In this document: positions 1 to 45,858 of the stretch, in pieces
Position numbering within the stretch: position 1 is the stretch's first letter
Layout: every line of letters starts with the position of its first letter
Assembly (NCBI GenBank): GCA_010015805.1
Contig: ML978130.1
Location: forward strand, 1 to 64,000
Length of the DNA: 64,000 nt
Source: Rhizodiscina lignyota
Taxonomy: Eukaryota
Reading direction: 5' to 3'
Made by a program: the position numbers and the translations under genes
Notes under the pieces: generated by a model
Databases searched by the model: none
What the model was told of the DNA's origin: nothing
The model's input: the letters and a program-made list of their open reading frames with translations, nothing else

Positions 1-95
1 AACCCTAACCCTAACCCTAACCCTAACCCTAACCCTAACCCTAACCCTAACCCTAACCCTAACCCTAACCCTAACCCTAACCCTAACCCTAACCC
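1..95. repeat. Telomeric repeat (CCCTAA)n, i.e. TTAGGG on the minus strand; chromosome end
   Basis: Perfect CCCTAA array from base 1 to 95, then unique sequence. Confidence 0.99.
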
Positions 96-3000: not shown

Positions 3001-3419
3001 GTGTAGGGTACAGTTAGGACGGTAAGGTTTAGTCGACGCGAAGGTAGGTTAGGTAGAGGAGAGATCTATAGCGTAGGGAGGATACTAGCGGCTATACTTG
3101 TAGCTATACTTATAGCTAGTAGTAGTAATAGTACTAGTAGTAGTGCTAGTAGTAGTACTAGTAGTAGTACTAGTAGTATAGTAGACGAGGACGCTACAGC
3201 GGGTAAGAGGGCTTAGAAGAACTAGCAGATACTATGCTATCCTACTATTAGTAGGGACTTTGACTTTGACTTTAACTTTAACCTCGACTTTAACTCTAGC
3301 CTTAGCTTTTCCCTAGCTTTAGCCCTAGTCTTAGTTCTAACGGGCCTACGCGCCGCTACTACTTCTAAGTGTAGTAGGTTTAGGTAAGTAGAAAGGTACG
3401 TTTACGCTGTCGCTATTAT

Positions 3420-3465
<46 letters not shown>

Positions 3466-3870
3466 TCCTCTACTACTATTATTAATAACGACAGTAATAA
3501 TAACGACGGTAATAGCTACTATCGCTAGTATAGCTAGCTATGCTCCTTTACCTCCTCTACCTCCTTCTTCCTATCCTACTACCGCTACTCCTACGCATTA
3601 AGGCTAAGGCTAAGGCCTTATAGCTGCTAGCCAACGCTAGTAATGCTACTAAGCGTACGCGTAGCGTCTAGTTCGTTAAACGGGCGCTTAGCGATAGTAT
3701 TAGCCTACTACGACTACTCTATAGTCTAGTATAGCTATTACGCCTCCTCCTCCTGTTATAGCTCCCTCTTCTCCCTCTAGCGCGCCTAGTACCGCCGTAC
3801 GCGCTCTGCGACACCCCTACGCAGACTAAGGGCGTACAGGTTAGTAGTATTAGTCGATAGGGGCCGTCCC
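96..3870 (-). pseudogene. RIP-mutated subtelomeric hypothetical gene, truncated by the telomere
   Basis: Minus-strand translation stays protein-like in one frame (e.g. AMRHFEAYIERALDLAF, RFYVDLAKEIC, GGLVYSQFYASVKEV, MPFTNSDLEDLA) with transition-type damage; 5' limit approximate. Confidence 0.7.
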
Positions 3871-4159
3871 CTCTTAGGGCCTAAGGCTAGTAGCACTACT
3901 ACTAGTACTAGTACTAGTACTAGTACTAGTACTACTAGTACTACTAGTACTACTAGTACTACTAGTACTAGTAGTAGTACTATCTCTCCTTTTATAGCTG
4001 CCCTACTCCCCTCCTACCCTCTATATATATAGCGTCTCTAACCCTCTATCTATCTATAGCGTATAGCGTAATAAAAGAGATAGTAGAGGACGAGCGATTA
4101 AAGAGGGGAGAGAGAGGATAGGAGACGGGTAGATAGCTACTACTACTACTACTACTATA

Positions 4160-5077
4160 CTCGTCACGTAGGTATTACAATCTAAAATTGGATTAGAGCG
4201 CCTACCCCTACTACCCTACTCTACAAGTAGCGTAGTAGTAGCGTCGTAGTAGTAGTAGTAGTAGCAACAGGTAATAGAAGAGGCTAAGAAATACTACGTT
4301 AAAATTAGAGAGGGAGGCGGAGGAGGGTATAAAGTAGCTACTTACGCCTTTATTTCCGCTCTATTAACGCTACGCGCGCGTGCTAGTAAGACTTTACGCT
4401 CTACTATAGCGCTTAATTACGTAGGCGTTACAATTTAGCGCTAGCCCTCCGCCCTTCTACTCTACAAGTAGTAAAAGCAGCGCTAGGCGGCGCGAGCCCT
4501 TAAATAGAGCGAGAATTAAAGGCGCGCATAGCTACTCTACGCCCTCCCCTACTCTTCTCTCTAATTATTATATAGATATAGTATATACTATCTCTCTCTT
4601 ACGCGCGCGCGCGCGTACTAAGCTATACTCTTAACCCTAGCTTATAGTCACGTAGGCGTTACAATTTAGCGCTAGACCTCTACCCTAAAAGTAGCGCTAG
4701 GCGGCGCGAGGCCTTAGATAGAGCGAGAATTAAAGGCGCGCGTAGCTACTCTATACCCTCCTCCTCTACTCTTCTCTCTCTAATTATTATATAGTATATA
4801 CTCTCTCTCTCGCGCGCGCGCGCGTAGCGAGCTACACTCTTATCTTAACCCCTAGCTTGTAGTTACGTAAGTGTTACAATTTACCCCCTACGCCTTACCC
4901 TCTCTACTAGCGACCTCTCTAACTTTGCTATACTTACTATACTACTACGCTACGAGCTATTTAGTAAATAAGACCTACCCTCTACTACTTACACCTACCG
5001 CTCGCTATCCCGCTCTTTTTTCCCCCCTATTTAGGCCCGCTACGCGCCTAAGCCCTAACCTAAATCCGAGCTATAGA
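4160..5077 (+). repeat. Degenerate tandem subtelomeric repeats, ~215-250 bp units
   Basis: Unit-start motif (t/c)acgtag(g/a)ygttacaat recurs near 4165, 4418, 4648 and 4863; shared gagcgagaattaaaggcgcg and (cg)n tracts. Confidence 0.8.
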
Positions 5078-5097
5078 CGCGCAACTGCCGCTCCCTT

Positions 5098-8066
5098 ATA
5101 ACTCTGTCTACTATCTACTTACTACTATCGACACTGCTAAACGCCTTTCTATTCCGCTTATCGTCTATAAAACTCTACTTAACCCTTATCTCCGCTATAT
5201 TATCTACTATCTAGTCTATCTTTACTAGCGGCAACCGCGTCGTTATATCCGCGCTATTAGGCCGGCCCTTATCGTCAATATGTAATAATAACAACCTCCT
5301 CTTAAACCTTAACTATAATATATATACTAACCTATAGATTATCGCCCGTAAATCTAGTATGCTAAAACTAATATAGCTGTATAACAACCTGTCGCTAACC
5401 TAATCTACTACTCTATCTACTACTATACTATAATATACCTTTAACCTATACGTCCTTAATATTAAAACCTAATTTATTAGCGTCGGCTTACTACTAAATA
5501 TAGTTAATATTATAAACCTATATACTATCTCCTACGCTAACTAGAAATAGGTCGGCGCCTTCTTTAATACCTCTACCCGGCTAAAACCTTGCTCTTCCCT
5601 TATCTCTTTAATTACTACTTCCCTTATTAACTTTATACGGTATAAAACTAATATCCTAGCGACTATAACAACTGCTAATAATACTTATATTACCCTAGAC
5701 GGCCCTTTCTACGTATAATCCTTATCTAACCCTAAAACCGCCAATCTACTAACGATACTATTTATATATACGTCGTCCTATATATTATAGTTTAATAATA
5801 CGATTAAAAACTCTAATATCGCTGCTTCTACCTTACTATCTTCTTTATCTCCTTTCTTCTCTTCCTCTCCTTACTCCTACTCTTACTCCTACTCTTACCC
5901 CTACCCCTATACCTTCTTACCCTACTCCTCTTTACGCTTAATAGCCTATCTAACCTATATTAATACTCTAACCTATCTACTAGTTAATCTATACAGTAGT
6001 CTTTTCTACCTAATACTATTTTCTACCTTTTCTCTCCTATCCCTCCTTCCTTACCTTCTTCCCTCTTACCTAGCCCTTTTAATCTCTATACACATCTCTT
6101 TATCTAACCCTAAATCCCTTTCTAAATCTTCCTCTAAATCCTCTTCTACTAGCCCTATCGACGCGTCTCTTAACCTACTATTACTATCGCTACTACTACT
6201 ACTCCTACTACTCCTCCTCCTCCTCCCCCCTTTTATCGCCTTTAGTAAACCCTACGTCCTCTAAATATAATAAACTACTTTATACTAAACCTTAGCGTAC
6301 CTCTTAATCGTCTTACCCTACTACCTTACGTTTAATAGCTTCTTATTTAATATCTTACCTATCTCTCTCTTATTTATATAATATATAGCTATAAAACCTA
6401 TAACTTCTAGCTATACTACCTTTTACGCCTCCTAAATAACTATCTATACTATATTATATACCCTAACTAACTCCTACTCTCTTTTTACATCTATTATACT
6501 ACTACTTTTACTATTACTTTCGCTATTACTTTTACTATTACTACTTTTACTACTACTATCGTTACTACTATTATCGCTACTACTACTATTACTATCGCTA
6601 TCACTCCTATCTCTATCTACTAGTATCTCTACTATCTTAACTAACTACCTATAGTTAAACCCCTTTAAATACCTCGCCTATCCTGCCCTTCTTAACTACG
6701 TCTATAGTACATATCTATTTATATTAGCCTAAACTATTACCCTCTCCTCTTTAGCCTCTTACTTTAACTACTTATCTACTAATATAAAAACCCTCTCTAT
6801 CTACTGCCTTATAACACGCTATATCTACTTATCTCTATTAACTATACTTTCTCCTTTATCTCCCTTACCCTTACCCCTTAGCCTTACTATTACCTTAAAT
6901 AACTACTACTACCCTCCTATCCTAAAAAACTACTAGTAATATATACCTGCTATTTATATCTCGTACTCTTATACCTCTATAATAGCTAACCTTATCGCCC
7001 TACCGCAGCCGCGCCTATTCGCCTACTTATACTCTCGCCTATAATATTTCTACATATCCTCCTACATACGGCGTATATATCTACACTTATTATACTAATA
7101 ACTATCGTCTTATAACTATAAACTAGCTAATAGCGCTAATATAGGCTCTAGATACTAGACCTCCTTACGCGTGACTACGATGTCTTCTACTACGATACTA
7201 CTTACCTCTACTATAATCGCCCTACGCGTGTCTACTATTAACTTACTCTTATACTTCTAGCTTAAATGTAAACCTATACTACTCCTAATAATAGTGTATC
7301 TATACCTCCTGTAAATAATCGCCTTGTACTACGGTAAATACTTGAAATAATTGCTAAAACCTACTATCTCTCCCCTAATCTTTTAATCTCCCTCCCTCCT
7401 TAGTTCTACTATAGGTTCTTCCTTAACTAATAACTAGGGCAACTATTAAATGGCCTTCTAAACTTAATAATACGTTTTATTATCTACTTAAATCCCTAAT
7501 CTTCTCCCCCTTTTCTTATTTCGTAGCTTTAACGCTTTAGCCCCTAGCTATACTACGCGCGCACGCCTACCTACCTACCCTACTTAAAACACACGACTAC
7601 GAAACTACTTTCGTACTACGGAAATAGGCGTGTACTACCCTATTAACCTACTATATTCAACTATAGCTTACCCGCCTTTAACTATAATATACTACCTACT
7701 ATCCTACCTACCTACTACGTCCGACTACGACTTGTTTTACTCACTACATACTATACTAAACTACTAATCCTACTCAGATCACGTGACCGCGAACACGAAA
7801 ACTCCTATACACTACGGACTACGGCTATAACGTAATAATATACTATAACCCTAATAGTTCTAACTATATAGCCGGGTTAGGCGCGGCTAAGACTATATTT
7901 CTATACGTTTAAAACCCGCCTTTAGGCGCTACTTTGCTACTTTCTCGCAAATTAGGTTCGACTTTAAACCCTAAATCGGTCCGACCCCCTCCTTATCCTA
8001 CTAGCGCTAAATTTATTAGCAGGTTTAAATTAGTTCGACTCGAACTAGTTGTATAGTATAAGTTAG
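5098..8066 (-). pseudogene. TLH: Partial copy (upstream region plus N-terminal half) of a telomere-linked RecQ helicase gene, RIP-mutated
   Basis: Colinear with 10413-13381 at an offset of ~5315 bp; near 7250-7360 the de-RIP reading gives F-x-Y-L-P-Q-Y-K-A-I-I-C-x-x-C..H..H (DUF3505-like N-terminus). Confidence 0.8.
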
Positions 8067-11000
8067 CTCCTATCCTCTTATATAACCTTACCCGTCCTCT
8101 AATCGACCTTAACCGCCTATAATACGATTAACTCGTACGCCCTTTTATCCCTACCTGCCTTACTACTCTTTTATACGAAACTCCTTAACTTCTTTACCTT
8201 ACCTACGTATATAACTACCCTAATTGTTAGTGTATTAACCCCTAATCCTAACGCGTTTATCGCTGTAAAAACCTACTCTATACTTTCTTTTAACACTTAT
8301 AACAACTTTACCTTTTCTTCTTTACTGCCTACTACTCTATAGAAATACTTATACCCTAAAACCTTTACTAACCTTTCTATCTTCTTAACTATATCGTAAT
8401 ATACTATAATCTAGCCTAGTATCGCATACTACGCCCTCTTCTCCTCTACTAATCTAACTACTATCTCCTCCTCTTCCGCCTAGCTATAAAAAATTACCTA
8501 GTATTTAATATTCTTCTTTATAGTTAGCGCCTTAAACTAATACTCTCCCTCTCCCTTTTCTTCTCTCTTTTCCTTTATACTCTCTCTTTTACTACTACTA
8601 CTACTCTTTTTATTACTACTACTATTACTCTCCTTACTACTACTACTACTACTACTACCTCTTTTCTTACTATTACTACTACTAAACCCTATTAATCTTT
8701 TAAACTTTAGCTCGTCTACTAGTAGTAATATTACTATTAAAAATACTATCTATATCTCTACCCTAATTAACTCCCTTAACTGTAAAACCTAACTCCTCTA
8801 CCTACTCCCCTTACTCGAATCTAATACTACGTAATACTTATTAATTACTACCTAATCTAACTAGCCTATTACCTTCTACCTATTTAAAAACTAGCTAAAC
8901 GCTATACCTACTACTAACTCTAGCGTTACGAATACAATTAACGCCTACTTATATAGCCTTATACTACTCTACTCTATATACTCTATCCCTACTACCTTAT
9001 ATCTAGCCGCTATATCCTGCCTTAATATAATTAATAGTACTACTACTACTATTATACCCGTAGAATAAAACGCTAGTAATATAAATAATAAACTCTTACC
9101 CTCTCCTATTACTATAATCGCTACTACTAGGCTTCTCTACTATATAATTACCTTAATTACTAGCTCTTATAACTCTTTAAACTCTACGTCTAGCCTAACT
9201 AACTTCTGCAACTACTTCCTTATATCTGTCTTCTATATTACTACCTACTTCCTAAACTCTTTTTCCTCTGCCTACTACCTCCTATAGGCTACTACTAAAC
9301 CCTACTTAGCTAGCTCTTATAACGCTAATTTAAATATTAAAAACTTATACTACTCTTTACTAACCTTCTAAAATATAACCTACTATACTATAGTATAGAA
9401 TAGCGACTTATCGACGCCTTTACTATATATACCCTCTCTTATCTACGCGTTATAGCCTGTCTACAAATAGAATCTAACCTCTCTTTAATTAAACCTATTA
9501 ATATACTACCTCTTCCTCCTCTTATCCTCTCCCTACTACCTACTATCCTTATCTCCTCTCGTAATAGCTTGGATAATAGCCTTATTATTAATATACTACC
9601 TATAAATCGCCTTACTACTATGCCTTTAATATATAATATTTATCCTTACCCCTAAATATGTTATACTAGCCTTTTAGATCGCCTTTTTAACCCTATCTAT
9701 ATCCTAATATACTATCTTTATTAATAGTAGCTACTATCTATCCTCTTTATTATCCCTTTCTTCTTTTCTTCCTCCTTCTTACCGTTTTCTCCCTCTTATC
9801 TTTAGGCCCTACTACGCCTATTCTAGCTTTAGCTCTTATAAAAACAGGCTACGGCTGCTTCTACTACTACTAGCGATATTTCTACTATTGTTACTAGCGA
9901 TATTACTACTACTATCTCCTTTAACCTCTACTACTACTACTACCGCCGCTACTATTAATATAATAGTAGAAATACTCTCTAACCTGTCCTAAAACGGCCT
10001 TACTAACTATAAATCGTATAATAACAACGACCCGACCTTGTATAGCAAATACTAGTAGATTACCTTCTTTCTACTACTAAACCCTACGCCCTTATAGTAC
10101 TATACTACGTATACTACTATCCTATCCTCTACGAAAATACCTCTACCCGCGCTATCTATACTATTCTTATACTATACTATAATAATCTCTATACCCCTAG
10201 CTAGCTATCCTCCTATTATATATATTAATACTAATAAATCCTGCCTATACGCGTCTAAATCCTTCTTATACTACTAGATCCTATCTTTCTTCTATATAAC
10301 TAGATCGCTACTATTCTACTACTACCGCCGCCGCTACTACTACTAGCTTCTATAGATTATATCGTACGTAGCCTTAGTATTAACAAACTCCTCGTATAAC
10401 TACTACTCCCCTATAACTCTGTCTACTATCTACTTACTACTATTAACGCTACTAAACGCCTCTCTATTCCGCCTATTATCTACGAAACTCTACCTAACCC
10501 TTATCTCCGCTATATTATCTACTATCTAGTCTATTTTTACTAGTAGTAACCGTATTATTATATCCGCGCTATTAGGCCGGCCCTTATCGTCGATATATAA
10601 TAATAATAACCTCCTCTTAAACCTTAACTATAACGCGTATACTAACCTATAGATTATCGCCTGTAAATCTAGTATGCTAAAACTAATATAGCTGTATAAT
10701 AATCTATTACTAACTTAATCTACTACTCTATCTACTACTATACTATAATATACCTTTAACCTATATATCCTTAACATTAAAACCTAATTTATTAGCGTTA
10801 GCTTACTACTAAATACGGTTAATGTTATAAACTTATATACTATCTCCTACGCTAACTAGAAATAGGTTAGCGCCTTCTTTAATACCTTTACCTAGCTAAA
10901 ACCTTACTTTTCCCTTATCTCTTTAATTACTACTTCTCTTATTAACTTCGTGCGGTATAAAACTAATATCCTAGCGACTATAACAACTACTAATAATACT

Positions 11001-12680
11001 TACGTCGCCTTAGACGGCCCTTTCTACGCGTAATCCTTATCTAACCCTAAAACCGCCAATCTATTAACGATACTATTTATATATACGTCGTCTTATACGT
11101 TATAGTCTAATAATATAATTAAAAACTCTAATATTACTACTTCTACCTTACTATCTTCTTTATCTCCTTCTCTTTTTTCCTCTCTTTACTCCTACTCTTA
11201 CTTCTACTCTTGCCTCTACCCCTATACCTTCTTACCCTACTCCTCTTTACGCTTAATAGCCTATTTAACCTATATTAATACTCTAACCTATCTACTAGTT
11301 AATTTATATAGTAGTCTTTTCTACTTAATACTATTTTCTACCTTTTCTCTTCTATTCTTCCCTTTTTACCTTCTTCCCTCTTACCTAGCCCTTTTAATCT
11401 CTATATACATCTCCTTATCTAACCTTAAATCCCTTTCTAAATCTTCCTCTAAATCCTCTTCTACTAGCCCTATTAACACGTCCCCTAACCTACTATTACT
11501 ATTACTACTACTACTACTTCTACTACTTCTCCTCCCTCTCCCCCCTTTTATCGCCTTTAGTAAACCCTATATCCTCTAAATATAATAAACTACCTTATAC
11601 TAAACCTTAGCGTACCTTTTAATTATCTTACCCTACTATTTTACGTTTAATAGCTTCTTATTTAATATCTTACCTATCTCTCTCCTATTTATATAATATA
11701 TAGCTATAAAACCTATAACTTCTAGCTATACTACCTTTTACGCCTCTTAAATAACTATTTATACTATATTATATACTTTAACTAACTCCTACTCTCTTCT
11801 TACATCTATTATACTACTACTTTTACTATTACTTTCGCTATTACTTTTACTATTACTACTTTTACTACTACTATCATTACTACTATTATCGCTACTACTA
11901 CTATTACTATTACTATCGCTTTTATTTCTATCTACTAGTATCTCTACTATCTTAACTAACTACTTATAGTTAAACCCTTTTAAATACCTTACTTATCCTA
12001 CCCTTCTTAACTATATTTATAGTATATATCTATTCGTATTAGCCTAGACTATTACCCTCTCCTCCTTAGCCTCTTACTTTAACTACTTATCTACTAATAT
12101 AAAAACCCTCTCTATCTACTACCTTATAACGCGCTATATCTACTTATCCCTATTAACTATACTTTCTCTTTTATCTCCTTTACTCTTACCCCCTAGCCTT
12201 ACTATTACCTTAAATAACTACTACTACCCTCCTATCCTAAAAAACTACTAGTAATATACGCCTACTATCTATATCTTATACTCTTATACCTTTATAATAG
12301 CTAACCTTATCGCCCTATTACGGCTACGCCTATTTACCTACTTATACTCTTACCTATAATACTTCTACATATCCTCCTATATATAGCGTATATATCTATA
12401 CTCGTTATACTAATAACTATCGTTCTATAACTATAAACTAGCTAATAGCGCTAACGTAGGCTCTAAATACTAGACCTCCTTACGCGTAACTACAATATCT
12501 TCTACTACGATACTACTTACCTCTACTATAATTACCCTACGCGCGTCTACTATTAACTTACTCTTATACTTCTAGCTTAAATATAAACTTATACTACTTC
12601 TAATAATAGCGTACCTATACCTCCTATAAATAATCGCTTTATACTATAGTAAATACTCGAAATAATCGCTAAAACCTACT
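8067..12680 (-). pseudogene. TLH: Near full-length telomere-linked RecQ helicase relic, RIP-mutated
   Basis: Minus-strand motifs in order after reversing transitions: GEGKSLLF (I, ~9090), VVVV(P)LI (Ia), AAT AAG TAT TAC = DECH (II, ~8835), L(T)A(T)L (III), (T)NALGLGV(D) (V, ~8245), (Q)(E)S(G)(R)AGRD (VI, ~8155). Confidence 0.88.
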
Positions 12681-13379
12681 ATCTCTCCCCTAGTCTTTTA
12701 ATCTCCCTCCCTCCTTAGTTCTACTATAGGTTCTTTCTTAACTAATAACTAGGGCAACTATTAAATAGCCTTCTAAACTTAATAATACGTCTTATTATCT
12801 ACTTAAATCCCTAATCTTCTCCTCTTTTTCTTATTTCGTAGCTTTAACGCTTTAGCCCCTAGCTATACTATACGCGCATGCCCGCCCGCCCGCCCTACTT
12901 AAAACACGCGACTATAAAACTACTTTCGTACTACGGAAATAGGCGTATACTACCCTATTAACCTACTATATTTAACTATAGCTTACCCGCCTTTAACTAT
13001 AATATACTACCTACTATCCTACCTACCTACTATATCTGACTACGACTTATTTTACTTACTACATACTACGCTAAACTACTAATCCTACTCAGATTACGTG
13101 ACCGCGAATACGAAAACTCCTATATACCGCAGACTACGGCTATAACGTAACAATATACTATAACCCTAATAGTTCTAACTATATAGCCGGGTTAGGCGCG
13201 GCTAGGACTATATTTCTATATACTTAAAACCTACCCCTAGGCGCTACTTTACTACTTTCTCACAAATTAGGTTCGACTTTAAACCTTAAATTAGTCCGAC
13301 CCCCTCCTTATCCTACTAGCGCTAAATTTATTAGTAGGCTTAAATCGGTTCGACTCGAACTGGTCGTATAGTACGAGTT

Positions 13380-13818
13380 AGTTATATAAGCGTTATAATT
13401 TAACGCTAGACTTTTACTTTAAAAAGTAGTACTAAGTAGTATAAAGCTAAGGCCTTAAATAGAGCGAGAATTAAAGGCGTATATAGCTACTTTAATACCC
13501 TTTTCTACTCTTTTCCTCTCTAATTATTATATAGTATATACTATCTCTTTTTTATACGTATATACGTAGTAAGCTATACTCTTATCTTAACTCTTAGCTT
13601 ATAGTTATATAGGTATTATAATTTACTCTTATACTCTTACTCTTTTTACTAGTAACCTCTCTAACTTTACTATACTTACTATACTACTATACTATAAGCT
13701 ATTTAGTAAATAAGACTTACCTTTTACTACTTATACTTACTACTTACTATCCTACTCTTTTTTTCCCTTATTTAAGCCTACTATATACTTAAGCCCTAAG
13801 CTAAATTTAAGCTATAGA
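13380..13818 (+). repeat. More heavily RIP-mutated copy of block 4646-5077
   Basis: Colinear match including agagcgagaattaaaggcg, taattattatatagtatata, tttagtaaataagac and aagccctaa(c/g)ctaaat. Confidence 0.85.
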
Positions 13819-14179
13819 ATAGCGCCTATAATTATACTTTAAGTAACTAAGTAGCTAGTTAAGTCTAGCCTTATAAGGCCTTTTAACTTTAAGAGTTATT
13901 CTACTCTAAAAAAGCTAACGCTTTATCTTTTTACTTTATAAAAGTATCCTAAAAGGCGTTTATTTTCTAAGTACTAAGCTAAAATATAATAACTTCTTTT
14001 ACTTTAAGCTACTTTAAGTACCTTAAAATACTATTAAAGACTTGTTATTTACCTAAGCTTAATACTTAAGGGCTATTTTAAGTTATACGCTTTAAACTAA
14101 TAGTTTTAAAACGCTTAAAGTCGTTTTAAGTTATTTACTTAAGGTAAAAGGTTATAAACGCTTATACTATACTTAAGCT

Positions 14180-14425
14180 ACTTAAAGGACTTTACTACCT
14201 ACTTTATAGCTTAAGTAAACGCTTTAAGCCTATAAAAGACTAAGACTAAAAGTACTTAAGTAGTACTTAAAGGACTTTTATACCTACTCTATAGCTTAAG
14301 TAAATACTTTTAAGCCTATAAGAGACTAAGACTAAAAGTACCTAAGTAGTACTTAAAAGACTTTATAAATACTTACTTTATAGCTTAAGACAACGCTTTA
14401 AGCCTATAAAAGTAAGACTAAGTAG
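14180..14425 (+). repeat. Three tandem ~85 bp AT-rich units
   Basis: acttaaa(g/a)gactt...tatagcttaag...ctttaagcctataa...gactaag starting near 14180, 14264 and 14351. Confidence 0.75.
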
Positions 14426-29933: not shown

Positions 29934-31559
29934 GCGCAGACAATTCATGGAAATGTCAAACCGTCCTTGCTCAATCACGATAATTATTGCAGTTCTTCAC
30001 TTCTGTACCAGCCGTATCCCTTTGTCTCCTGCTTTCCATTTCGTCCACGCCTCAAGACTGTAGCCTCGAGAAAGTTGTGCGTTGCAAGGAGTAAACGATG
30101 TGATCGAAAGAGATGTCTTCATATTCCGATGTAAAGAAATGATTCGCGTTCAACATTCGTAATTGCGGAGGATGATAAGAACGTATCCCTGCCTCGAAAT
30201 TACAGTTAGCGCCTAATATCAGCATATTTGCGCCATCTGCTTCCATCGAAGGCGGTGAGGAGGTTTGGCCATGGCTTCAAGGCATTGAACGACTGTGATG
30301 TATGTCCATTACCAACCAGTCATTGGTGTCATTCGACGGTTTGCTGCCGTTGCATACACTGCAAAGAGTGAAGAGCAAGCTTTCGAGATAGTCTCGATTA
30401 CCCCGAGTGCAAAAGGTGCTCGACCTCCGGTACTGTAGCTTCATGTTGGCGAGCGGCCAGACTCCATTTGTGGGTGCCAGCCTCTGCTTCTGCCTTAAGT
30501 GTCGCTCTGAGCAGTCATCATGGAGAAGATGCTTTGGATATAGTAGCGGCCGCTGCTCCCGCTCGTGCAATGTACTGTTCGAAGAAGGTCTATGGGTCGG
30601 TTCGACGCATCTACGGTTGGAGTCCGTTTCGGCGAGCGGTGTAAGGGATGACAGGCTGTGTGGACGATGTGGAGGATCGAGTGTGAGATTTTAATGGCAA
30701 GGTGGGTCTTAAAGCCTCCATTGTATACGCCGAGGCTATAATTTCGAGCAATTGATCAATATTGTCAGTTCGTCGTGTGTCCATCACGTCGAATCGCGAC
30801 CACAGCAAAGCACGTGAGCACGCGCATCCGGCCCGGGAAAACAAAAGACCGACTCAAGAAACACGTCGTCTCATCTTCTAGACATTTCATAATGGAGAAC
30901 ATTGCATGAGATAATTCGTTTTCCGTAGAAAAGAACGTGAACTCAATTTAAAATGTCCGTCGTTTGCATTGAAGTGCAGTTGGACGGATAGGGACAGATT
31001 ACGATACCGTAAGCAAAGCGCTTTTGGGGAGAGGCAAGTAGCTCGAAGTCGAGAACAACGATTCATATTGTCAGTTGTCAGTGAGATAGAGATCCCATAA
31101 AGTGAGACGTGGAAAAGCTTGGGTAGAATCATCGCCATGGTCTGGTGTGGAAGAAGTGGCGGATTCAGCGAGGTTGGAAGGTTTTCCTTCGGCATCACCA
31201 ATCAACATCAAACGAAACGCGATTTCCATGGAACATACCATCTCCTCTAATTCTTTAGCTATCGTCCTTGGATCATGCCTGACGAAGTCACTTTGATGGC
31301 CAGCAAGAGTTTGAGTACTACACGTGGAATACCCGCCACAGCCTGGCACTTTCACAGCGGCTTCAAATGATATTAATGAGACACAACACCACTAAACACA
31401 CAGTGGCGCTGTCTGGGACAACTTCGGCTTCTTTATTCCCAGAGAAATCTGCGGCCCGACGCACCACAGGCGCATATTTAAACTTCGCTGCCCATCCTAG
31501 ATTCGTAAACTTTGCTCGCACGAAATTTCACCGCCCACACAAAGCATCTGCTCAACAAA

Positions 31560-32240
31560 ATGGGTAACTCCTCCTCCACTACATCCTCCTCTCAAGCAGG
31601 AGAAGATTCCATGTCCAGTAACGCGGATACGCCTCACGTTGACCAGTCATCACAGCCTGTGCCCAGCGCTGTCGTTCCCTCTTCTCTTGACGGTCGGGAT
31701 ACCTCTGCAACATCTGGTCAACCAACTTCGGTTGACCAACTTCCCGACGAACAGCAAGCTATGCTCAAAAAGTGGATGCGTAGCACCATGATGAAACTCC
31801 ATCGCCGTCTTCGTGTTGAGAGCCAAGCCTTCCACACCAAACACACAAACTCCTTGCGCCAACTTCGGAACCGTCTTCGCACTGGGATGGAATCTCTGCG
31901 CACAGATTTTGAAACAGGCTTGCGCGAACTTCGGGACCTTCTCCACTCCGAAACGGAATCTCGCCGCACTGAGGTCGCAACCGTCCAGCGCGAACTTCAG
32001 GACCATTTTCGCACCGAGATCGAAACTATCCGTGCCGAAGTCACAACCTCACTGCGCAAGGACATTGATGAACTCGAGGATCGGCTACCCAAAATCATCA
32101 ACGACCAAACCCATGCACATCAGGAGCGCTCGGCGGAGCAATCACAGATCATCACAAGTCTGCTTCTCGAGATGCAGCGTTTGAAGACCCAGGTGCAGCG
32201 CTTGTCCGCTGCATTGGAGAAGAATGGTGGAGATGCCTAA
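31560..32240 (+). CDS. Hypothetical helical/coiled-coil protein with four 22-aa repeats and an N-myristoylation-like start
   Basis: Clean intronless ORF, start context aaaATGG, N-terminus MGNSSS, visible 66-nt periodicity. Confidence 0.75.
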   Translation: MGNSSSTTSSSQAGEDSMSSNADTPHVDQSSQPVPSAVVPSSLDGRDTSATSGQPTSVDQLPDEQQAMLKKWMRSTMMKLHRRLRVESQAFHTKHTNSLRQLRNRLRTGMESLRTDFETGLRELRDLLHSETESRRTEVATVQRELQDHFRTEIETIRAEVTTSLRKDIDELEDRLPKIINDQTHAHQERSAEQSQIITSLLLEMQRLKTQVQRLSAALEKNGGDA

Positions 32241-37399: not shown

Positions 37400-38760
37400 A
37401 TATGCAGTCCGGACCATCAGGTTATTAAGCAGCCTTGCATCATCTACTGCGGCACTATTGCGGCACGCCGAATACGTACTGGCTGGACATGATCTGTGGC
37501 TTCTCAGACCGAAAAGACCTTGATATCGGCGCTACATTCCACTCCTTTCCTAGATTAGGAATCCACGAGATTCGCCACTTCGTGTTCTCTATGTGCTCTA
37601 ACATCTATCCAATACTCGGAAAGAGATCCTGAACTAGGTGAGATCGAAGACAGACGACTTTGTCAGAAGCTTGCAGGGGTTGCAAACGCTTGATCTAGGA
37701 CAAAGGGCTACTTGAAAGTTTCGGGTAGTAGAGCCGTTGATGTTTCTCGTTGTTCATCGAAGATCGAATACTGCAGAGCGGACAAGCGGACTCTTGCAAT
37801 ATCACACGTCTGGAGTCATGGCCAGGGAGGGAGACCCGGCACCGGCATCAACGAGTGTCCATAGACACGGATACAAATCATATTGGATCGATACAGCCTG
37901 CATCACAGAGGACCACAACCTTCGGAAAGAGACGACCACTCATATCAACGATATTTTTGCATAGAGCACTCTCATCTGCGATCGAGATCTGTCTTCGCTG
38001 AGACCCCCCCAAAACAAAACAAAAAGGGATGAAGACGATGTTACGCAGGCGGAGCGGCTATTAGTGACACTGCTAGTCTGCGATTGATGTGAGAGCTTGG
38101 ACTCTGCTGGAATCACTTCGAGGAGAGCACATACACATCCTGTGTGCAAAAACCAGCTGGTATCGGTCAGAGGACGCAAAGAATATCCTTGAGAGGTGTG
38201 CTGTGGACGTTGCGGTCCTTGCCTTAACTCCCAAGCACTTCTGTCGAGCTACTCAGATGAGATTCAAGACCACGGAAGCTAGTGCCACGCTTAGCCATAG
38301 ATATGCTACAAGAGAAGGAGATGATGTCGTGATATGGAGCCTTTTGTGCGTACGACGAACCTCAGATATTACACTCTACCCATCGGTCTTTTGGAAGTCA
38401 ATGATGGGCGCGTATCTTAACACCGGTTACTTGATGTCCAGTACGCCGCGTCTGGAAGGCGTTAAGGGCTTCGGCTGGGCGCCATGCAGTCCAAATATAC
38501 GGCCACTCGGACACCAAATCTACCGACGCTCCAGCTATTCCCTAACAATGATGTTGACGCTGCCATGTACACGAGGTCGTGTGAGTCGGATGGTGATTGT
38601 ACGGGGCGAAGGAAAGCGCAGGAACATTGTCCAAGGTGGCATACAAAGCATGTGCAAGGAGGTTAATCAAAGCCTGGACGACCGGTTTCTTTACTATCAA
38701 TTCAAGAGGCGCAGATTTATGTTCCAATGTGAAGGGTATACTCTGTCCTTCTGTTGAGTA
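37400..38760 (+). pseudogene. HET-domain-like gene relic (copy 2)
   Basis: IEYCRADKRTLAISHVWSHGQGGRP, then frameshifted HGYKSYWIDTACI..HINDIF*, LLVTLLVCD*, RAWTLLES, LSHRYATREGDDVVIWSLL; limits approximate. Confidence 0.72.
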
Positions 38761-39132: not shown

Positions 39133-40119
39133 ATGAGTTCAAGCGCTATACGTCCAGTTGAGATGCAGGTAGGTAGCAGCAAGAATAGCCACGATTGTCT
39201 TACTGGCTACCGAACCACGACTAACAGTGCCTTCCTTTCAGGTGATAGGTGCTGGCATCGGCCGGACAGGAACAACATGTATGTTGTGCCTAAGGCCCGT
39301 TCAGGTAACAACACGATTACTTACTCTTCGCCACTTCGCAGCTCTTAGTGCCGCATTGGAAATACTGGGGATCTCTCCGACGTACAACTGGGCCGCACTG
39401 GAGGCATCCTCCGACTATGCTATTGATTTCTGGGTCCGTCAACTGAATATAAAGAGAAGTGGCAAATATCAAGCTTCGGATGGCATATGCAGAAATGCTA
39501 CTGTATGGGACGAAATTCTCCGCGACTATGCAGCCATCGCCGATGCACCAGGCAATGAGTTTGCTACAGACTTAGCGCATGCATATCCCAACGCAAAAGT
39601 TATCCTCACCGTGCGTGACTCGCCAGAAGCGTGGCTGGCGAGCTGGAATAAAACGATATACGCGCAGCAACTGACCTGGCGCGACTCTTGGAGCATGCGT
39701 GTGATGAGGGCGATTGATGAATTCACAGGCCGCGAAAGTAAAACCGACAGAATTATGGTCCCATTATCAGGCGGAAATTGGTTGCTTATGAACCGCAGCT
39801 TGCGTGGTACAACGATTTCCAGGAACATGTACACAAGAACGTACCGGCCGATAGATTGCTGGAATACAACGTCAAAGAGGGATGGGAGCCTCTATGTCAC
39901 TTCCTTGGCAAGGAGATTCCAGATGTAGCGTTCCCTCACGTCAACGATGCGGCTGCATTCCATGACGGAACTGAAAATGCAATGCGCAAGCAGCAGGAAC
40001 GGCTTCAGTGGCTTGTGCTCGGAACCTGTTTATTTATAGTCGCCCCTGGCGCGTTGATGTTGGGATCTTTGACAAGGTTTCTGGGCACGGCGCTTCATCT
40101 CGCTATGCTCAGTTCATAA
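39133..40119 (+). CDS. P-loop sulfotransferase-like protein (Sulfotransfer_4 type) with C-terminal TM; one apparent -1 frameshift near 39761
   Basis: Spliced MQ|VIGAGIGRTGTT|SLSAALEILG, AYPNAKVILTVRDSPEAW; then in the shifted frame VPADRLLEYNVKEGWEPLCHFLG..FPHVND. Confidence 0.8.
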
Positions 40120-40206
40120 CCATCGATAACATGAAATAGTTCAAACACGACGCTCTCAAAGCTGGTTCAAACAGCCTGTATCTGCTAGAATTCGACCGAG
40201 TATTTC

Positions 40207-42262
40207 CTATTTCGGGCAAATTCGAAAGCGCACCAAAGTTCCGAACGCAAAGCCGAGGAGTTGTGGCAATTCTCCCAGACACCACCACCAGTTCCATTGC
40301 TCAATCCTATACTCGGGTTTCGGGAGCCGAGGCTGAATTCTGCCATCGAAAGATGAATGTCGCTCCAGAAGCTCTCGTCGAGGAGGCACAGTGGGTGGCA
40401 GCACGGCGTAAGCCAGTGGAGCAAGCAAGTCGAAATAATCCTCCAGATCCATGCCGGGGGCCAGAGTATGAGTCCAAATGTGTCGGCATACTGCTTCCTG
40501 ATCAACAGAGTCTCGGGCAGTCGATATTGCTCTGCCAACGAACCCAAGAACAAGAGTCACGACGAGAATATGGTACCACAAGCCTTGATGGAGCACCATA
40601 GTACTCAAACGCCGCAGAAGTGACGGCCTTGACGGTTTATCCCTCTCCCTGAGTGACGAATCTAGCATACCTGTCGGAATAAACGTGATAGGCGTGCCTG
40701 CTAAGGCACGTGGCAGAAGTTCTCGTACAGTGCCCATGGAAATGTATGGACTGAGCCACACGTATCCTTGCTTTCTACGCTTGACCTCACGATAGCCGCA
40801 GTAGCTGCCAGCGACCAAGCTTTCTAGGCGGTAGAGCAGGCTGATAAGCCATGCTATGGCGATCATATGCTCAAGATCATTTTTATTCTTCGCGATGACC
40901 AGTGGCTTTTCGGAGGACATAAGCAGTAGGATAGCCCAGCTCCGGAGAGTTCTATTGATTGCCGAAAGATACGGGCTCAATGTCCAAGAGAGTTGTACAG
41001 CACGCTGTTGCCAGGTTACATGCGGCAACAGTGCAGTATTGAAGCCGAAGCCGAGGATTTTGCCGGCACGTATTGTCCCCACATTCTGCCGACGTCAGAA
41101 GATGTAAGATTCATATCAAGAAACTTTAATATCGCTTACCCATTTCAAACGCTGACCGATATAGCCAGCTATTGTGTCGGGTACGAGACCCCATTGTAAT
41201 TGCTCGTGGCAAAGAATCGTATGCCATCCACGTCCATTCAGAAGCATACCGCATAGTACATCTTCCATCAATGCCCGTGTGTTAAAGCCGCCGATATCGA
41301 CAAGCGCTTTCCGGCGAAACAATACCCCCGGCCCAGTCTCCCATGCTGCTCCAATACTATCACGCTGTAGTTGATCCGAGTGGTTGAAAACGTACATCGA
41401 TTGAAAGAGAGGGTCATTGGTCGGTAAATTGTAGTAGCTCTGAGGGACGATAGCAACACCACCGTCTGGATCGAGCAGTAAGTGACCCAGACAGGCGCGG
41501 AGGAAGTCTGCTTCTAGAATCATGTCGGCATCTGTGAAGGCGCAAAACTCTGTACGGTCGCCAAGGGTGTCCAAATGGCTAAGCGCTGCGTTCATGTTGC
41601 CGGCTTTGTAGCCCATTTTGGAACCTGCTCTCCCAGGTCGGCGATAGTATAGCAGCTCGCAAGGCGCATCCTTCTTCAAGGCATGTATGGCCTCCTGCAG
41701 CGAATCATCGTTGCCGTCGTCGGATACGAGCACCCTGAATCGGTCGGATGGATAGTTCTGTGCACACGCGGCTCGGGCGGTGTCCAAGATTACGTCGATG
41801 TTTTCGCCACAGGTAACAATTATGACATCCACTGCCGGTACTGTGTCGCCTACCAGCCGTGTTTTTCGTCTTGTTCGACTCGGTTGCAGGGTGCAAAAAC
41901 GCCAACCCTCTTCGGAAACAAGGGCGACTGCGGTACTCTCAGTTACGTTCAGGCAGGCAGTTTGGGTTGCACGTACGCAGTAGAGAAACCTGCGTCCCAA
42001 TGAATCCCCAAGCCACTGCTGCCTGGCCGGGCTGCGCGTGATGTGCGGCCTTTGCCAGCAAGCGAATCAAATAGACCTGCAATAGCCATAGAAGAATTGT
42101 CAATGGTCTCCACACGACCTCAGCGACTGCTCTAGTCCATCTTTGCGTGGCCGACGTGGGTGGTAAGACTTCAACCGACTGCTGGATCGTGTACTTGCAG
42201 TCTGGCGACTCTGGCCCGGCAACGAATGTGACGGTTTCGTGCGAAGGCATGCGTGAAAGCAT
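40207..42262 (-). CDS. Processive cellulose-synthase-like glycosyltransferase family 2 (introns 41928-41976 and 41086-41139)
   Basis: Two N-terminal TMs, DVIIVTCGE, DDG, KAGNMN, DAD, PQSYYN, MED, QRLKW (QxxRW variant), FIPTG, multiple C-terminal TMs. Confidence 0.9.
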
Positions 42263-43205
42263 TCTTCATATCGCGTTTGAGGAATATATGCCCCAAGCAT
42301 GTGTATTATATACAACATTTATTGCTCAAAGGACTTGGTTTCCTATTTTGAAAGTGCGATGAGAGGCAACTGTAAACCGCTCCACTTATTACGTTGCTAA
42401 TATTTTAATTAATGCCCTAACTATTCGTTTGCTTACAATTTTGTTCTCGTGGGTTAAATGGCGAGGAATTTTACAACAACACGCATAAACAGCTTTGGAA
42501 TGCAGCGGCCTTTCTAGTTCTAAAATGCCTTATTTCGAAACATTATTCTAACCCTTCCTACCACCCTCTAGTTGGGGTCGTCTTACTGCTTATTCGATGT
42601 TAAACATACATCATCTTATAAATACACGGTATTCCGTTTCGTGGCAAAATACTAAGGAAAGGCGGTCTTTATTGCTAAACAACATAAAATTCTTAGATTA
42701 GAATATTCTACTTTCTCTCTTCTAGCGATTGGTAATTCCCACTTCTGGAAAAGATTTAATGGAGCTAACCCAAATTAGTCCATAGCTGACCCCAACCCGC
42801 TTTATTTGTTTATGAAGCATTCCCTCCTAACCAGGGCAAATTCCTTATCAAATGATGAATTTGGATTGCTCGGGGTGGCGATATCATTTCGGTTGTCTCT
42901 GCTAGCTGCCATCTGACATGATAGAGGTTATATCACGTCACTTTACAACCGGTTATTACCACATCGGTGGTGCGGCCGCATATAATTATGGAGTGGAGAT
43001 AAATTCGGCGACCAGATGAAGTCGGTTAAGGCATCCTCACCGAACCGATGCTGGTAAGCCCAGACGTCTAGCCAAGTCAAATCTTACTCACATATGATAC
43101 TAATTATGTTTACTTGGCTCAGATACAAAAAGAACCGCAAAAATCGCCCACTAGCACACTACATACGCCGTCTCTCATATGTAGATCAGGTTTTAAGGCG
43201 TAACG

Positions 43206-44265
43206 ATGAATGGAATAAGTCCTAAGCACCGCGTCCTCGTAACCGGGGGGGCTGGCTTCCTTGGATCGAGACTGGTGTCGTCTCTACTTAGAAGGGGACA
43301 TGAAGTCATTGTATTGGACAATTTCTGCACAAGCTTTCCGTCTTCTCTCGCAGAGTTCCAAGATAACCCGGCCTTCTCTTTCGTACAGTAAGTGGGATCC
43401 AAATGTCAACATCAGCAAAATTCTCGCCATACTAATGAACTTCAGAGCCAACGTTACGGAGCCACTTTCAGACTCTCTCAAAGTTTCTCGCATATATCAC
43501 CTCGCCTGTCCCGCCAGCCCTGTGCTTTTTACGCAACAGCCACTCGAAATCCTAGACACATGTTACCAAGGTACCCGGAACATTCTCGAGGCGGCGCACA
43601 GATGGGGTGCACGGGTCTTGCTAGCAAGCACGTCGGAAGTGTATGGACAGGCCGAACGAAACCCGCAGGACGAGAAGTATCGGGGCAATGTAAATTGCTT
43701 TGGCCCACGCGCCTGTTACGACGAAGGAAAACGTGTGGCTGAGGCACTGGCCTATGCGTACCGGACGCAGCGCTCCCTAGAAATTCGTATTGCTCGGATC
43801 TTCAATACCTATGGACCCGGCATGCATGCCAGTGACGGTCGTGTAGTTTGCAGTTTTGTTGGTGCCGCTATCGAGGGAAAGGACTTGATCATCAAAGGGG
43901 ATGGCAAATCCACTAGATGTTTTCAGTTCGTTGATGATTGTATCACAGGCCTCGAGAGTCTGATGGAGAGCAATTGGTCAGGCGGTCCGGTTAATATTGG
44001 AAGTGAAAAGGAGACGACGGTATATGAGCTGGCTGAGGCCGTCATCAACGCGGTATCAGCACTGACAGGGCGTCCAAAAGCGAGGATAGTGTACAGTGAA
44101 GCCCTTCCTGATGATCCAGTCCAAAGGAGGCCTAACTGTACATTGGCGAGGAAGATTCTAGGATGGGAAGCCCGGACACCTCTATCAGAAGGGTTGTCTC
44201 ACACGATCGATTGGCATCTAAACCTTTACTTTATAAGAGACTATAGAATAAAGCTAGTTAACTGA
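43206..44265 (+). CDS. UXS1: UDP-glucuronate decarboxylase (UDP-xylose synthase); intron 43388-43445
   Basis: [69 protein letters not shown]. Confidence 0.92.
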
Positions 44266-44559
44266 GATAATAAAGTCTTAAGAAATTGTAAAAAATTTTC
44301 ATGATATTGAGACTTTTTAACGCCCCACTACTTAGGGGGACAGGATGTAATATTATTAAAGTTTACCGAGAATGTACTCTACCTGGCTAGTCGGAATTGC
44401 TACTTGAAATCCCTGAAGCACACGTCAGATAAGCTTCCCCCCACTCGTCAGTGGACGTGGCCAGTAGGGACTGATGGCCTTGGGTACTAAAGCTCAACCA
44501 CACTCCCATTTGAAATTTGAAGAGAAATTCCGCGACGCTTGTCGGCCACGACCAAAAGA

Positions 44560-45858
44560 ATGCAGCGAATACAATGGGTCGATGGTTTGAGAGGCATTGC
44601 CGCTTTTCTCGTCACTTTCAATCATTTTTTCAATGGGGAGATTGAAGCACCCTTCCGGTCTTTCTGGGCACACCCCAGCGATGCCAACCGCCATCTCATC
44701 CAGCTGCCCCCGATCCGCATTCTCTGGGCTATGGATGCGATGGTGCCTCTGTTCATGGTCATCTCAGGATATTCCATTTCTCGCAGCCTCATACATACCC
44801 GAGAGACGCGACCAGACCGACTGACGGCACATTTCCGGTCCTCCTTCTGCCGTCGTCCCTTCCGGCTATTTCTCCCGGTCCTGCTCCTTTCCATTACAAC
44901 CCAGATACTTTTCTTCTTCGACATTTTTCACCATATATTCAGGCCCAGAATCTACCAACTGGTCCAGCCGGGCGTTGCACCCTGTCGTCATGTTGGCTTC
45001 CTGATCGAGTATATGATGGACTCGTTAAATCTGTTCGACCCTCAATGGAACGACGGTATCAACGAGCCGTTATGGACAATGCCTATAGAATATCGCGGAT
45101 CCTGCATCATATACTTCATCATCATTATCCAAGCCTCGTGGAAGCCAGTCCCTCGGATCTGGAGCTTAGCATGTCTCATGTTGTACATATGGTGGTATGC
45201 TTACTGGGCCGTGTTACCCTTCGTGGGAGGGCTGATGCTGGCTGAGATCCAGACAGCATTCCCTAGTTGTTTGACCATCCGCCGGGGAACTGGGCGTTGT
45301 GCACAGGTCGTCGCACTCACCGTGGGCTTGTATCTTCTCTGTCTTCAATCCTCGGATGGCTATCCCCCTGGATACGGGTTCCTTGTAAAGGCTCAGACGT
45401 GGCACTGGACGCAGTACTCCACCTGGCTCGATACGCAGCGCATGTGGCACGGAGTGGGCGCAATTCTCTTTTTCCTGGGAGCCTTAGACGCCCTGTGGAT
45501 CCATCGGCTGCTCTGTACCGGGCCTGTGCAAACGATGGGTCGGCTTTCGTATGCTGTTTACTTGGTGCACTTCGCAATTTATCTTCTTTGGCGAGCCCCA
45601 CTTCGTGACGCTCTCTGGCGGGGCATCACGAAGTCCGAGTATCCTGGGGTCGAAACGGCAACGGCTGAACGTCTGGGACTGTTTCTCTGTGTGTATGTGG
45701 TCGCGGGCCTAATATTGGGCTCCGTGGTTGTTCTGACAGCGCAACTGTATATGGAATATGTTGACGGGAAGGTCGTTCGTCTTTCGAGGGCTATTGATCA
45801 ATGGCTGAATAGCAGGGACTTGAAGGAGCCTAACCAGATAAGAGACAAGTCCTCTTAG
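44560..45858 (+). CDS. Membrane O-acyltransferase, acyltransferase-3 (OafA-like) family, intronless
   Basis: WVDGLRGIAAFLVTFNH, FMVISGY, RRPFRL, LWTMPIEYRGS, GRLSYAVYLVH; many hydrophobic segments. Confidence 0.92.
   Translation: MQRIQWVDGLRGIAAFLVTFNHFFNGEIEAPFRSFWAHPSDANRHLIQLPPIRILWAMDAMVPLFMVISGYSISRSLIHTRETRPDRLTAHFRSSFCRRPFRLFLPVLLLSITTQILFFFDIFHHIFRPRIYQLVQPGVAPCRHVGFLIEYMMDSLNLFDPQWNDGINEPLWTMPIEYRGSCIIYFIIIIQASWKPVPRIWSLACLMLYIWWYAYWAVLPFVGGLMLAEIQTAFPSCLTIRRGTGRCAQVVALTVGLYLLCLQSSDGYPPGYGFLVKAQTWHWTQYSTWLDTQRMWHGVGAILFFLGALDALWIHRLLCTGPVQTMGRLSYAVYLVHFAIYLLWRAPLRDALWRGITKSEYPGVETATAERLGLFLCVYVVAGLILGSVVVLTAQLYMEYVDGKVVRLSRAIDQWLNSRDLKEPNQIRDKSS

Follow-up and report, generated by a model that had tools for sequence, protein, structure and literature searches.

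A UDP-xylose synthase gene paired with a divergent TFT1/CelA-family GT2 gene in a subtelomeric region of Rhizodiscina lignyota: a candidate module for a xylose-containing polymer

Introduction

The sole characterised enzyme of the fungal TFT1/CelA family makes a pure glucan and, to our knowledge, xylose is not expected as a backbone sugar in ascomycete walls. In humans and in Cryptococcus, UDP-xylose supplies Golgi xylosyltransferases. Barley CslF3 and CslF10 are reportedly (1,4)-β-glucoxylan synthases, the expression of which gives a glucose-xylose polymer, and we know of no clustering of either with a gene for UDP-xylose synthase (UXS). On pSymB of Sinorhizobium meliloti, uxs, galE/uxe and GT2 genes lie in a row, in a locus that we take to be APS. 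The characterised fungal enzyme, TFT1 of Aspergillus fumigatus or CelA of A. nidulans, is a (1,3;1,4)-β-glucan synthase (bioRxiv 10.64898/2026.09.17.752320; PMC5519750). AfTFT1 alone gives mixed-linkage glucan in K. phaffii, and members of the TFT1 lineage share 70–96 % identity with it (bioRxiv 10.64898/2026.09.17.752320). A pentose is inserted by the arabinoglucan synthase of Physcomitrium (AGlcS, Pp3c12_24670), which is described as a CslO protein closely related to the Tft1 clade (PMC9915684; PMC7997180; PMC10374906).

Layout of the locus

The window analysed here is the first 64 000 nucleotides of contig ML978130.1 of the wood-dwelling fungus R. lignyota (GenBank assembly GCA_010015805.1). 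It opens with a telomere repeat (AACCCT ×15.8 at the contig end, positions 1..95, + strand), used for context only, and the GT2/UXS locus lies 39–46 kb from this repeat, which agrees with the subtelomeric position given in the original prediction. Four contiguous genes span positions 39133..45858, separated by gaps of 87, 955 and 294 bp. The GT2 and UXS genes diverge from a common upstream region of 955 bp (42251..43205, 40 % GC), or 943 bp if counted from an alternative ATG for the GT2 at 42262, close to the ~940 bp first noted, and we infer that they are co-regulated through it. The AT3 gene follows UXS in the same direction after 294 bp (predicted, ~295 bp). The predicted gap of 87 bp between the GT2 and sulfotransferase-like genes also stands if measured from the stop of the second sulfotransferase-like frame, but the latter gene is not one reading frame (see below). 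UDP-glucuronate had been expected to come from outside the window, and the only UDP-glucose dehydrogenase (UGD) gene found in the genome is indeed on the same contig, 1.09 Mb away, where it adjoins a nucleotide-sugar-transporter-like ORF.

The GT2 gene

The GT2 gene (40207..42250, − strand), part of the core of the locus, was identified by its gene model and matches to Pfam GT2 families. It has three exons (42250-41977, 41927-41140 and 41085-40207) without internal stops, and encodes a protein of 646 aa that is identical over 539 aa to NCBI KAF2095781.1 and shares 68 % identity over 642 aa with a protein of Lecanicillium saksenae. There is a profile match to BcsA (E 1e-42), and homology to the fungal TFT1/CelA-like GT2 family extends over the full length, C-terminal membrane region included. 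The original description of the product as a cellulose-synthase-like GT2 had missed its placement in the TFT1/CelA family, one member of which is biochemically characterised.

The window GT2 is 36–38 % identical to TFT1-type proteins (the comparators were TFT1-type proteins and not AfTFT1 itself), and its subclade is separate from the TFT1-type clade in the tree (support 100/99). The combination that marks the TFT1 orthologue group, namely 70–96 % identity, WCTGSG, QRTRW and a TFT1-like switch motif, was not found in it. Three paralogues of the family, including the window copy, are present in the genome. One of them, C1, on another contig, is TFT1-type, with QRTRW, WCTGSG and a TFT1-like switch motif, and the window copy would thus be free to differ. 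No match to UXS, UGD, AT3 or sulfotransferase (SULT) was found in the 20 kb around a further paralogue, C9. Judged by its sequence, the window GT2 is a divergent copy, additional to the TFT1-type gene, within the TFT1/CelA family of fungal mixed-linkage glucan synthases. A recent bacterial origin is unsupported, as a scan of prokaryote genomes gave a single locus (30 % identity), near which there is no UXS.

In the motif alignment, the catalytic aspartates (D, D, DxD and xED) are all present, and the processive D,D,D pattern, MED and QRLKW reported originally were each found. QRLKW keeps the Q and W of the QxxRW that is characteristic of processive GT2 synthases. The lysine is common to the subclade of the window GT2, and QxxKW can be regarded as a conservative variant, so that the fold and the likely mechanism stand. 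Lysine alone is also no sign of a new donor, as an R-to-K change in QXXRW is known in the Arabidopsis CesA3 mutant ixr1-4 (PMC8306620). MED had been read as a departure from TED, but the family shows free variation at the residue preceding ED (AED, CED, SED, TED and MED), and MED is not a meaningful departure. From the alignment, the informative changes are QxxKW together with the change from GSG to GPG, which had not been remarked on earlier. The GPG and QxxKW sites align with the FFCGS and QxxRW motifs of BcsA; GPG and QxxKW co-occur in 8 of 165 aligned rows, and GSG with QxxRW is found in most of the family.

The UXS gene

The second core gene (43206..44265, + strand) is intact, with two exons (43206-43387 and 43446-44265), and is predicted by its gene model to encode a UDP-glucuronate decarboxylase (UDP-xylose synthase) of 333 aa (NCBI KAF2095782.1). 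It is present in a single copy, the next-best matches in the genome being only 25–28 % identical. The closest solved structure is human UXS1 (PDB 2b69; E 2e-87). The motifs [14 protein letters not shown] and DDPxxRxP, which we take to be catalytic, are kept, and the motifs that define family membership, GGAGFx[15 protein letters not shown] and DDPxxRxP, are both present. Going by its family, the enzyme would turn UDP-glucuronate into UDP-xylose.

The GT2–UXS pair in other fungi

A synteny search across fungi had been suggested as a check, and the part of it that concerns GT2 and UXS bore the pairing out. The two have consecutive accessions in three Cercospora species (C. berteroae, PPJ52086/87; C. 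kikuchii, GIZ47251/50; C. beticola, CAK1366399/400), which together count as one independent event. They are arranged head-to-tail there and divergently in the window; the pair has thus been kept in two orientations at ~50 % GT2 identity. The C. beticola entry PIA92130 (955 aa) presents UXS followed by GT2 as one fused gene model. However, the C-terminus of its UXS is cut off and the other annotation has two proteins, and we treat the fusion as a gene-model artefact. The GT2 and UXS trees are congruent, both window genes falling in a supported clade with copies from Cercospora and Pseudocercospora. Suggestive only are the presence of GT2 and UXS on one contig of 255 625 bp in Pseudocercospora fuligena, and Logan contigs of 4512 bp in which UXS and a subclade GT2 are each present.

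At the canonical loci of the family, UXS, UGD, AT3 or SULT was found in the flanks of none of 75, among which 21 distinct loci have at least 3 kb on both sides. Five metagenomic loci of the window GT2 subclade, from two related organisms, had no UXS within reach, the flanks of the best two being 10/10 kb and 5.5/10 kb. Fulvia fulva, L. saksenae and Collybiopsis luxurians have the GT2, and UXS from these species is absent among the 120 UXS matches listed, which would miss fused or partial UXS models. In homologue searches, UXS was widespread in Aspergillus, Penicillium, Fusarium and Colletotrichum and the window GT2 subclade was not found there, indicating that fungal UDP-xylose has other uses. 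A literature search, which covered few subscription journals, found no description of a fungal GT2–UXS pair.

Proposed function of the pair

The probable product of the pair is a polymer of the wall or slime that contains xylose. The reading that we favour, with modest confidence and from sequence comparisons, is that GT2 and UXS are a two-gene accessory module in which the processive GT2 uses UDP-xylose to produce a glucoxylan- or xylan-type wall or EPS polymer. UDP-glucuronate would be provided by the housekeeping UGD elsewhere on the chromosome, and decarboxylated to UDP-xylose by a cytosolic UXS. The GT2, having neofunctionalised as a paralogue of the mixed-linkage glucan synthase of fungi, would polymerise on the cytosolic side and push the chain out through its own membrane pore, as its family membership suggests. 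Linkage, paralogy and the altered active-site motifs point to UDP-xylose as donor, either alone or alternating with UDP-glucose, and, by the same reasoning, to a linear β-linked glucoxylan or xylan destined for the wall or the extracellular matrix. The AT3 gene and the broken sulfotransferase-like gene would be subtelomeric neighbours of the module.

A wider version is tentative, and we hold it to be possible but doubtful. In it, a GT2 of the GPG/QxxKW clade would by itself suffice for processive xylan synthesis in ascomycetes, with UDP-xylose as its main donor, extruding xylan or mixed-linkage xylan/glucoxylan unaided. As a two-gene cassette with UXS it would have moved between Dothideomycetes and Sordariomycetes and reached a basidiomycete, giving leaf-spot fungi and wood fungi a coat of polymer similar to that of plants.

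Alternatively, the GT2 uses glucose only, making a mixed-linkage or 1,4-glucan of different fine structure, UXS feeds another xylosyltransferase or one that decorates the glucan, and co-regulation or co-transfer accounts for the linkage. This would accord with glucose use by the only characterised fungal member of the family, with the occurrence of subclade GT2s that have no UXS nearby, and with the transporter-like ORF next to UGD, which points to Golgi consumers of UDP-sugars. We consider it unlikely, as the single UXS adjoins this one of the three paralogues, in two orientations and in distant lineages, and none of the 75 canonical loci, and as the window ORFs that were scanned yielded no other glycosyltransferase.

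The AT3 gene

The AT3 gene (44560..45858, + strand) is intact and has one exon encoding a stand-alone membrane acyltransferase of 432 aa (PF01757, E 3e-23). It includes the R-X10-H and RxxR motifs described for AT3 proteins (PMC9558356), and the features of the family, R/K-X10-H in TM1, RxxR and a multi-pass fold, are all present. The Atlas model has a TM of 0.77 to a bacterial AT3. The best relatives of the window AT3 come from Aspergillus, with Aspergillus multicolor the closest (57 %), and seven matches in the genome show that this is a multi-copy family. None of 117 AT3 matches was named from Cercospora, Pseudocercospora, Fulvia or Lecanicillium, and AT3 and UXS were adjacent in none of the five genomes with a match to both. 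In these indirect comparisons, the AT3 part of the suggested synteny check found no support, AT3 showing neither co-distribution nor linkage with the pair in other fungi. From these comparisons, AT3 is probably a subtelomeric neighbour outside the core, though it may have been recruited locally to the pair. A three-gene version, with the glucoxylan- or xylan-type polymer O-acylated by an AT3 that this lineage added recently, would suit an intact gene with both motifs downstream of UXS, and bacterial AT3 proteins do acylate exported glycans (PMC9558356). Given the distribution and copy number of AT3, we regard it as quite unlikely.

AT3 proteins acylate small glycosides too (PMC9558356), and plant CslM enzymes are reported to act on saponin aglycones (PMC11775392). 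By analogy, the GT2 could be non-processive and transfer xylose to a lipid or secondary metabolite, with AT3 acylating the glycoside. The subtelomeric position and the other window ORFs (P450, thioesterases, MFS transporters and FAD monooxygenase) would be in keeping with this, as would the membrane region of the GT2, which is less hydrophobic than that of a TFT1-like protein (5 vs 6 hydropathy peaks; of those of the window GT2, two are N-terminal and two C-terminal, and the fifth falls within the first catalytic-domain strand). However, members of the subclade all retain the full layout of a synthase, with the switch-motif region and the C-terminal membrane part, the ORFs scanned included no PKS, NRPS or terpene cyclase, and the conserved unit in Cercospora is the GT2–UXS pair, which together make such a role very improbable.

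The sulfotransferase-like gene

In the remaining gene (39133..40119, + strand), a Sulfotransfer_4 domain (PF17784) is split over two frames by a frameshift near 39772-39780. The N-terminal frame runs to a stop at 39928; from ~39778 on, the final third of the domain is in the other frame, so that no single frame holds the complete domain. The letters are identical in a separate assembly (depth 154). A read-through with X scores as one domain. Ten intron models were tried and rejected; one runs into a stop, and the other nine depend on non-consensus donors and score as two domains, although their summed scores are close (up to 137.2 vs 139.6 bits). On its reading frames, the gene is a probable pseudogene outside the core, a non-consensus intron being the less likely alternative. 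PF17784 is multi-copy in the genome (13 matches at 8 or so loci), and none of 80 family loci had a PF17784-like match nearby. With no signal anchor ahead of its domain, the protein would face the cytosol.

Judged from accessions and family-locus flanks, AT3 and a sulfotransferase do not appear to form a conserved four-gene cluster with GT2 and UXS. The GT2–UXS core and, as the best reading, a xylose-containing glycan are what survives of the four-gene system originally predicted. An O-acylated, sulfated version of the polymer is unlikely, and the full four-gene system making such a xylan or glucoxylan, which has the contiguity of the genes in its favour, is extremely improbable in view of the frameshift in two assemblies, the copy number and distribution of PF17784, and the expected cytosolic orientation of the sulfotransferase-like protein.

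Significance

If the favoured reading is true, a UDP-xylose-using paralogue would define a new fungal polymer, and one use would be explained for the many unassigned UXS genes of ascomycetes. TFT1 and the GPG/QxxKW clade would be a natural pair for the study of hexose/pentose donor choice in cellulose-synthase-like enzymes. As crop pathogens, Cercospora and Pseudocercospora, in which the genes occur, present their surface glycans to plant immunity. The published K. phaffii assay for AfTFT1 makes a direct test of the GT2 product feasible.

Comparison with known systems

The window GT2 resembles TFT1/CelA in D,D,D, KAGN, PQ, xED, an SPY-type switch-motif region and the C-terminal membrane part. 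It differs in having GPG and QxxKW in place of GSG and QxxRW, in its linkage to UXS, and in its position in a separate clade outside the 70–96 % identity range. Moss AGlcS, as described, is like the window GT2 as proposed here, namely a Tft1-related GT2 that adds a pentose to a mixed-linkage backbone. However, it is a plant enzyme, the pentose is arabinose rather than xylose, and the comparison is with its published description; we know of no nucleotide-sugar gene linked to it. Barley CslF3 and CslF10 are also cellulose-synthase-like GT2s, but belong to the distantly related plant CesA/Csl lineage (the profile match of the window GT2 to CslF6 has E 4e-23). The window UXS is of the same enzyme family as human UXS1 and, presumably, Cryptococcus Uxs1, but unlike them it is an accessory gene adjoining a membrane synthase. 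The Sinorhizobium locus shares with the window pair the direct linkage of UXS to a GT2 of processive type in which QxxRW is altered (to QEFQW in this case), but is a bacterial operon with epimerase, GH26 and DUF995 genes. The GT2 of that operon and the window GT2 share only 25 % identity, so that the pairing arose independently.

Gene organization

Contig C10 of the 33.4-Mb fungal genome of Rhizodiscina lignyota begins with a telomere repeat, and its first 64 kb form the window. Gene models built with GT-AG introns are intact for the processive glycosyltransferase GT2 (42250-40207, minus strand, 646 aa), the UDP-xylose synthase UXS (43206-44265, 333 aa) and the acyltransferase AT3 (44560-45858, 432 aa). 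NCBI entries KAF2095781.1 and KAF2095782.1, both listed under Rhizodiscina lignyota, are identical to the GT2 and UXS, respectively. The intergenic spacings of 955, 294 and 87 bp are near those of the original prediction, which joined these genes and a sulfotransferase-like gene in one glycan system. The rest of the window is an ordinary subtelomeric gene mix (MFS transporters, P450, thioesterases and dehydrogenases).

At 4001-14400 lies an AT-rich subtelomeric block in which GC skew is strong (about -0.6) and dinucleotide use is RIP-like (TpA/ApT 2.18). Two of its ORFs (5791-6264 and 11106-11579) nearly duplicate each other, and therefore represent a duplicated, mutated repeat; a single long arginase/agmatinase-family ORF (PF00491; 15071-16129, plus strand) borders the block. 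The coiled-coil-like ORF at 31509-32240 (plus strand) contains a 66-bp tandem repeat (31853-32004). A 226-aa open frame without a Pfam match (38077-38757, plus strand) directly precedes the sulfotransferase-like gene; we take it to resemble a HET-domain protein tail, possibly a remnant.

GT2 belongs to the TFT1/CelA family

Sequence comparison places the window GT2 in the fungal TFT1/CelA family. AfTFT1 expressed alone in K. phaffii yields mixed-linkage glucan (bioRxiv 10.64898/2026.09.17.752320), and CelA is termed its orthologue (PMC5519750). Three family genes are present in the R. lignyota genome. Contig C1 carries a paralogue with QRTRW and WCTGSG whose switch motif almost equals the one published for AfTFT1, and these TFT1-type motifs make it the likely AfTFT1 orthologue. 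The third paralogue, locus L089 (G000:C9:1078648-1079910), is more divergent, with DDT for xED and QAAKW for QxxRW; no UXS, UDP-glucose dehydrogenase (UGD) or AT3 match was found in the 20 kb around it.

The window GT2 shares 36-38 % identity with TFT1-type proteins and falls in a separate 13-row clade (100/99) of a 38-row tree. It has GPG and QxxKW where most of the family has GSG and QxxRW. This proline and lysine occur together in 8 of 165 aligned rows, whereas proline alone is found in 1 and lysine alone in 2 (gaps at these sites in 19). The two sites align to the BcsA FFCGS and QxxRW motifs, and in the latter the arginine serves to coordinate UDP and the tryptophan provides a stacking surface for the acceptor (PMC8306620). 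MED, which the original prediction also listed as a departure, is uninformative because the residue preceding ED varies in the family.

Lecanicillium saksenae, a Sordariomycete, has the closest protein (68 % identity across 642 aa; support 100/98), and further relatives occur in Fulvia, Pseudocercospora, Cercospora and, among basidiomycetes, Collybiopsis. Such a scattered distribution is suggestive of horizontal transfer. The relatives P0419 and P0126 of 40207-42250 (the sister protein from L. saksenae and a same-subclade protein from Collybiopsis luxurians) hint at transfers between fungal classes, with the 22-kb Lecanicillium contig a possible contaminant.

UXS and UDP-sugar supply

The window UXS matches human UXS1 (2b69, E 2e-87) and retains a 14-residue motif and the DDPxxRxP motif, both with catalytic roles. 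It is the sole UXS of the genome, two further matches being just 25-28 % identical. Among the matches listed, Pezizomycotina are rich in UXS relatives; in a 51-row tree, the window copy lies with Cercospora and Pseudocercospora in a 12-row clade (99/98), nested in a 21-row clade that includes Ramularia, Zasmidium and Cladosporium.

The only UGD match is at C10:1,132,057, outside the window, in agreement with the expectation that UDP-glucuronate comes from elsewhere. Upstream are an adjoining ORF and a 552-aa ORF, which read as nucleotide-sugar-transporter-like and glycosyltransferase-like, respectively (region features: 2505-4163 and 6102-7039 of locus L005, both minus strand, and 61-1509 of locus L006, plus strand). 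With UGD, these may perhaps form a loose Golgi UDP-glucuronate module.

Linkage of GT2 and UXS

In Cercospora berteroae, C. kikuchii and C. beticola, the accessions of UXS and GT2 follow one another directly; the three species count as one independent case. One C. beticola annotation merges both as UXS then GT2, implying a head-to-tail layout there, as opposed to head-to-head in the window. Linkage is thereby established in two lineages. In Pseudocercospora fuligena, a single 255,625-bp contig carries both genes; their accessions differ by 15, which does not imply adjacency. A UXS and a subclade GT2 fragment each come from a Logan contig of 4,512 bp, and we infer that this is the same contig. 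The 120 UXS matches listed include none named from Fulvia, Lecanicillium or Collybiopsis.

As a control, a metagenome scan retained 80 of 124 family loci. UXS, UGD, AT3 or sulfotransferase was found in the flanks of none of 75 canonical loci (21 distinct loci flanked by 3 kb or more on each side) and of none of five GPG/KW loci, which represent two related organisms on a deeper branch. The latter result counts against use of xylose. A glucose-only synthase, which AfTFT1 would exemplify, is the less likely reading. The GT2-UXS link is real yet not obligatory.

AT3 and the sulfotransferase-like gene

AT3 has the R-X10-H and RxxR motifs of its family (PMC9558356). Its best match of 117 is from Aspergillus multicolor (57 %), and none of the species-named rows belongs to a genus in which the GT2 subclade is known. 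Co-conservation stands for GT2 and UXS but is not seen for AT3, which is on a different contig from UXS or far from it in all five genomes with both matches (P. nucicola, P. argentinense, A. nanangensis, A. sergii and S. elegans). The R. lignyota genome holds seven AT3 matches. O-acylation of the product by the intact window copy is doubtful.

The sulfotransferase-like gene, from 39133, was proposed as a fourth member, but its PF17784 domain is broken over two frames (positions 15-135 and 158-215, 57 bases between). In a separate Logan assembly of run X1, the entire 8-kb stretch recurs at depth 154 with no differing letters or gaps, which argues against assembly error; X1 may be the source of the R. 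lignyota assembly itself, and is then silent on other strains. A read-through translation that places X at the break gives one domain (138.9 bits) against a profile built from three paralogues. Of ten candidate introns across the break, one leaves a stop and nine have non-consensus donors; these nine cut the paralogue match in two, with summed scores close to read-through. A frameshift appears the better reading than an unusual intron. The genome has 13 PF17784 matches.

Proposed pathway and precedents

UGD would provide UDP-glucuronate, UXS would convert it to cytosolic UDP-xylose, and the GT2 would polymerize xylose, with or without glucose, and export the chain. On balance we lean, by a small measure, towards incorporation of xylose. 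A small-molecule xylosyltransferase is improbable. The full sulfated system has hardly any standing with PF17784 broken.

A literature search of partial coverage found no published account of a fungal GT2-UXS pair, though the supplementary tree of the TFT1 preprint may include the clade. The system is a candidate for a known synthase family with a new donor, and pentose use by the GT2 is plausible because there are three precedents. Barley CslF members reportedly make glucoxylan. Sinorhizobium pSymB carries consecutive genes for UXS, an epimerase and a QEFQW-bearing GT2, in what we take to be the APS locus, with an arabinose-containing product; this GT2 is 25 % identical to the window GT2. The moss arabinoglucan synthase belongs to a group that is a close relative of the Tft1 clade (PMC9915684, PMC7997180, PMC10374906).
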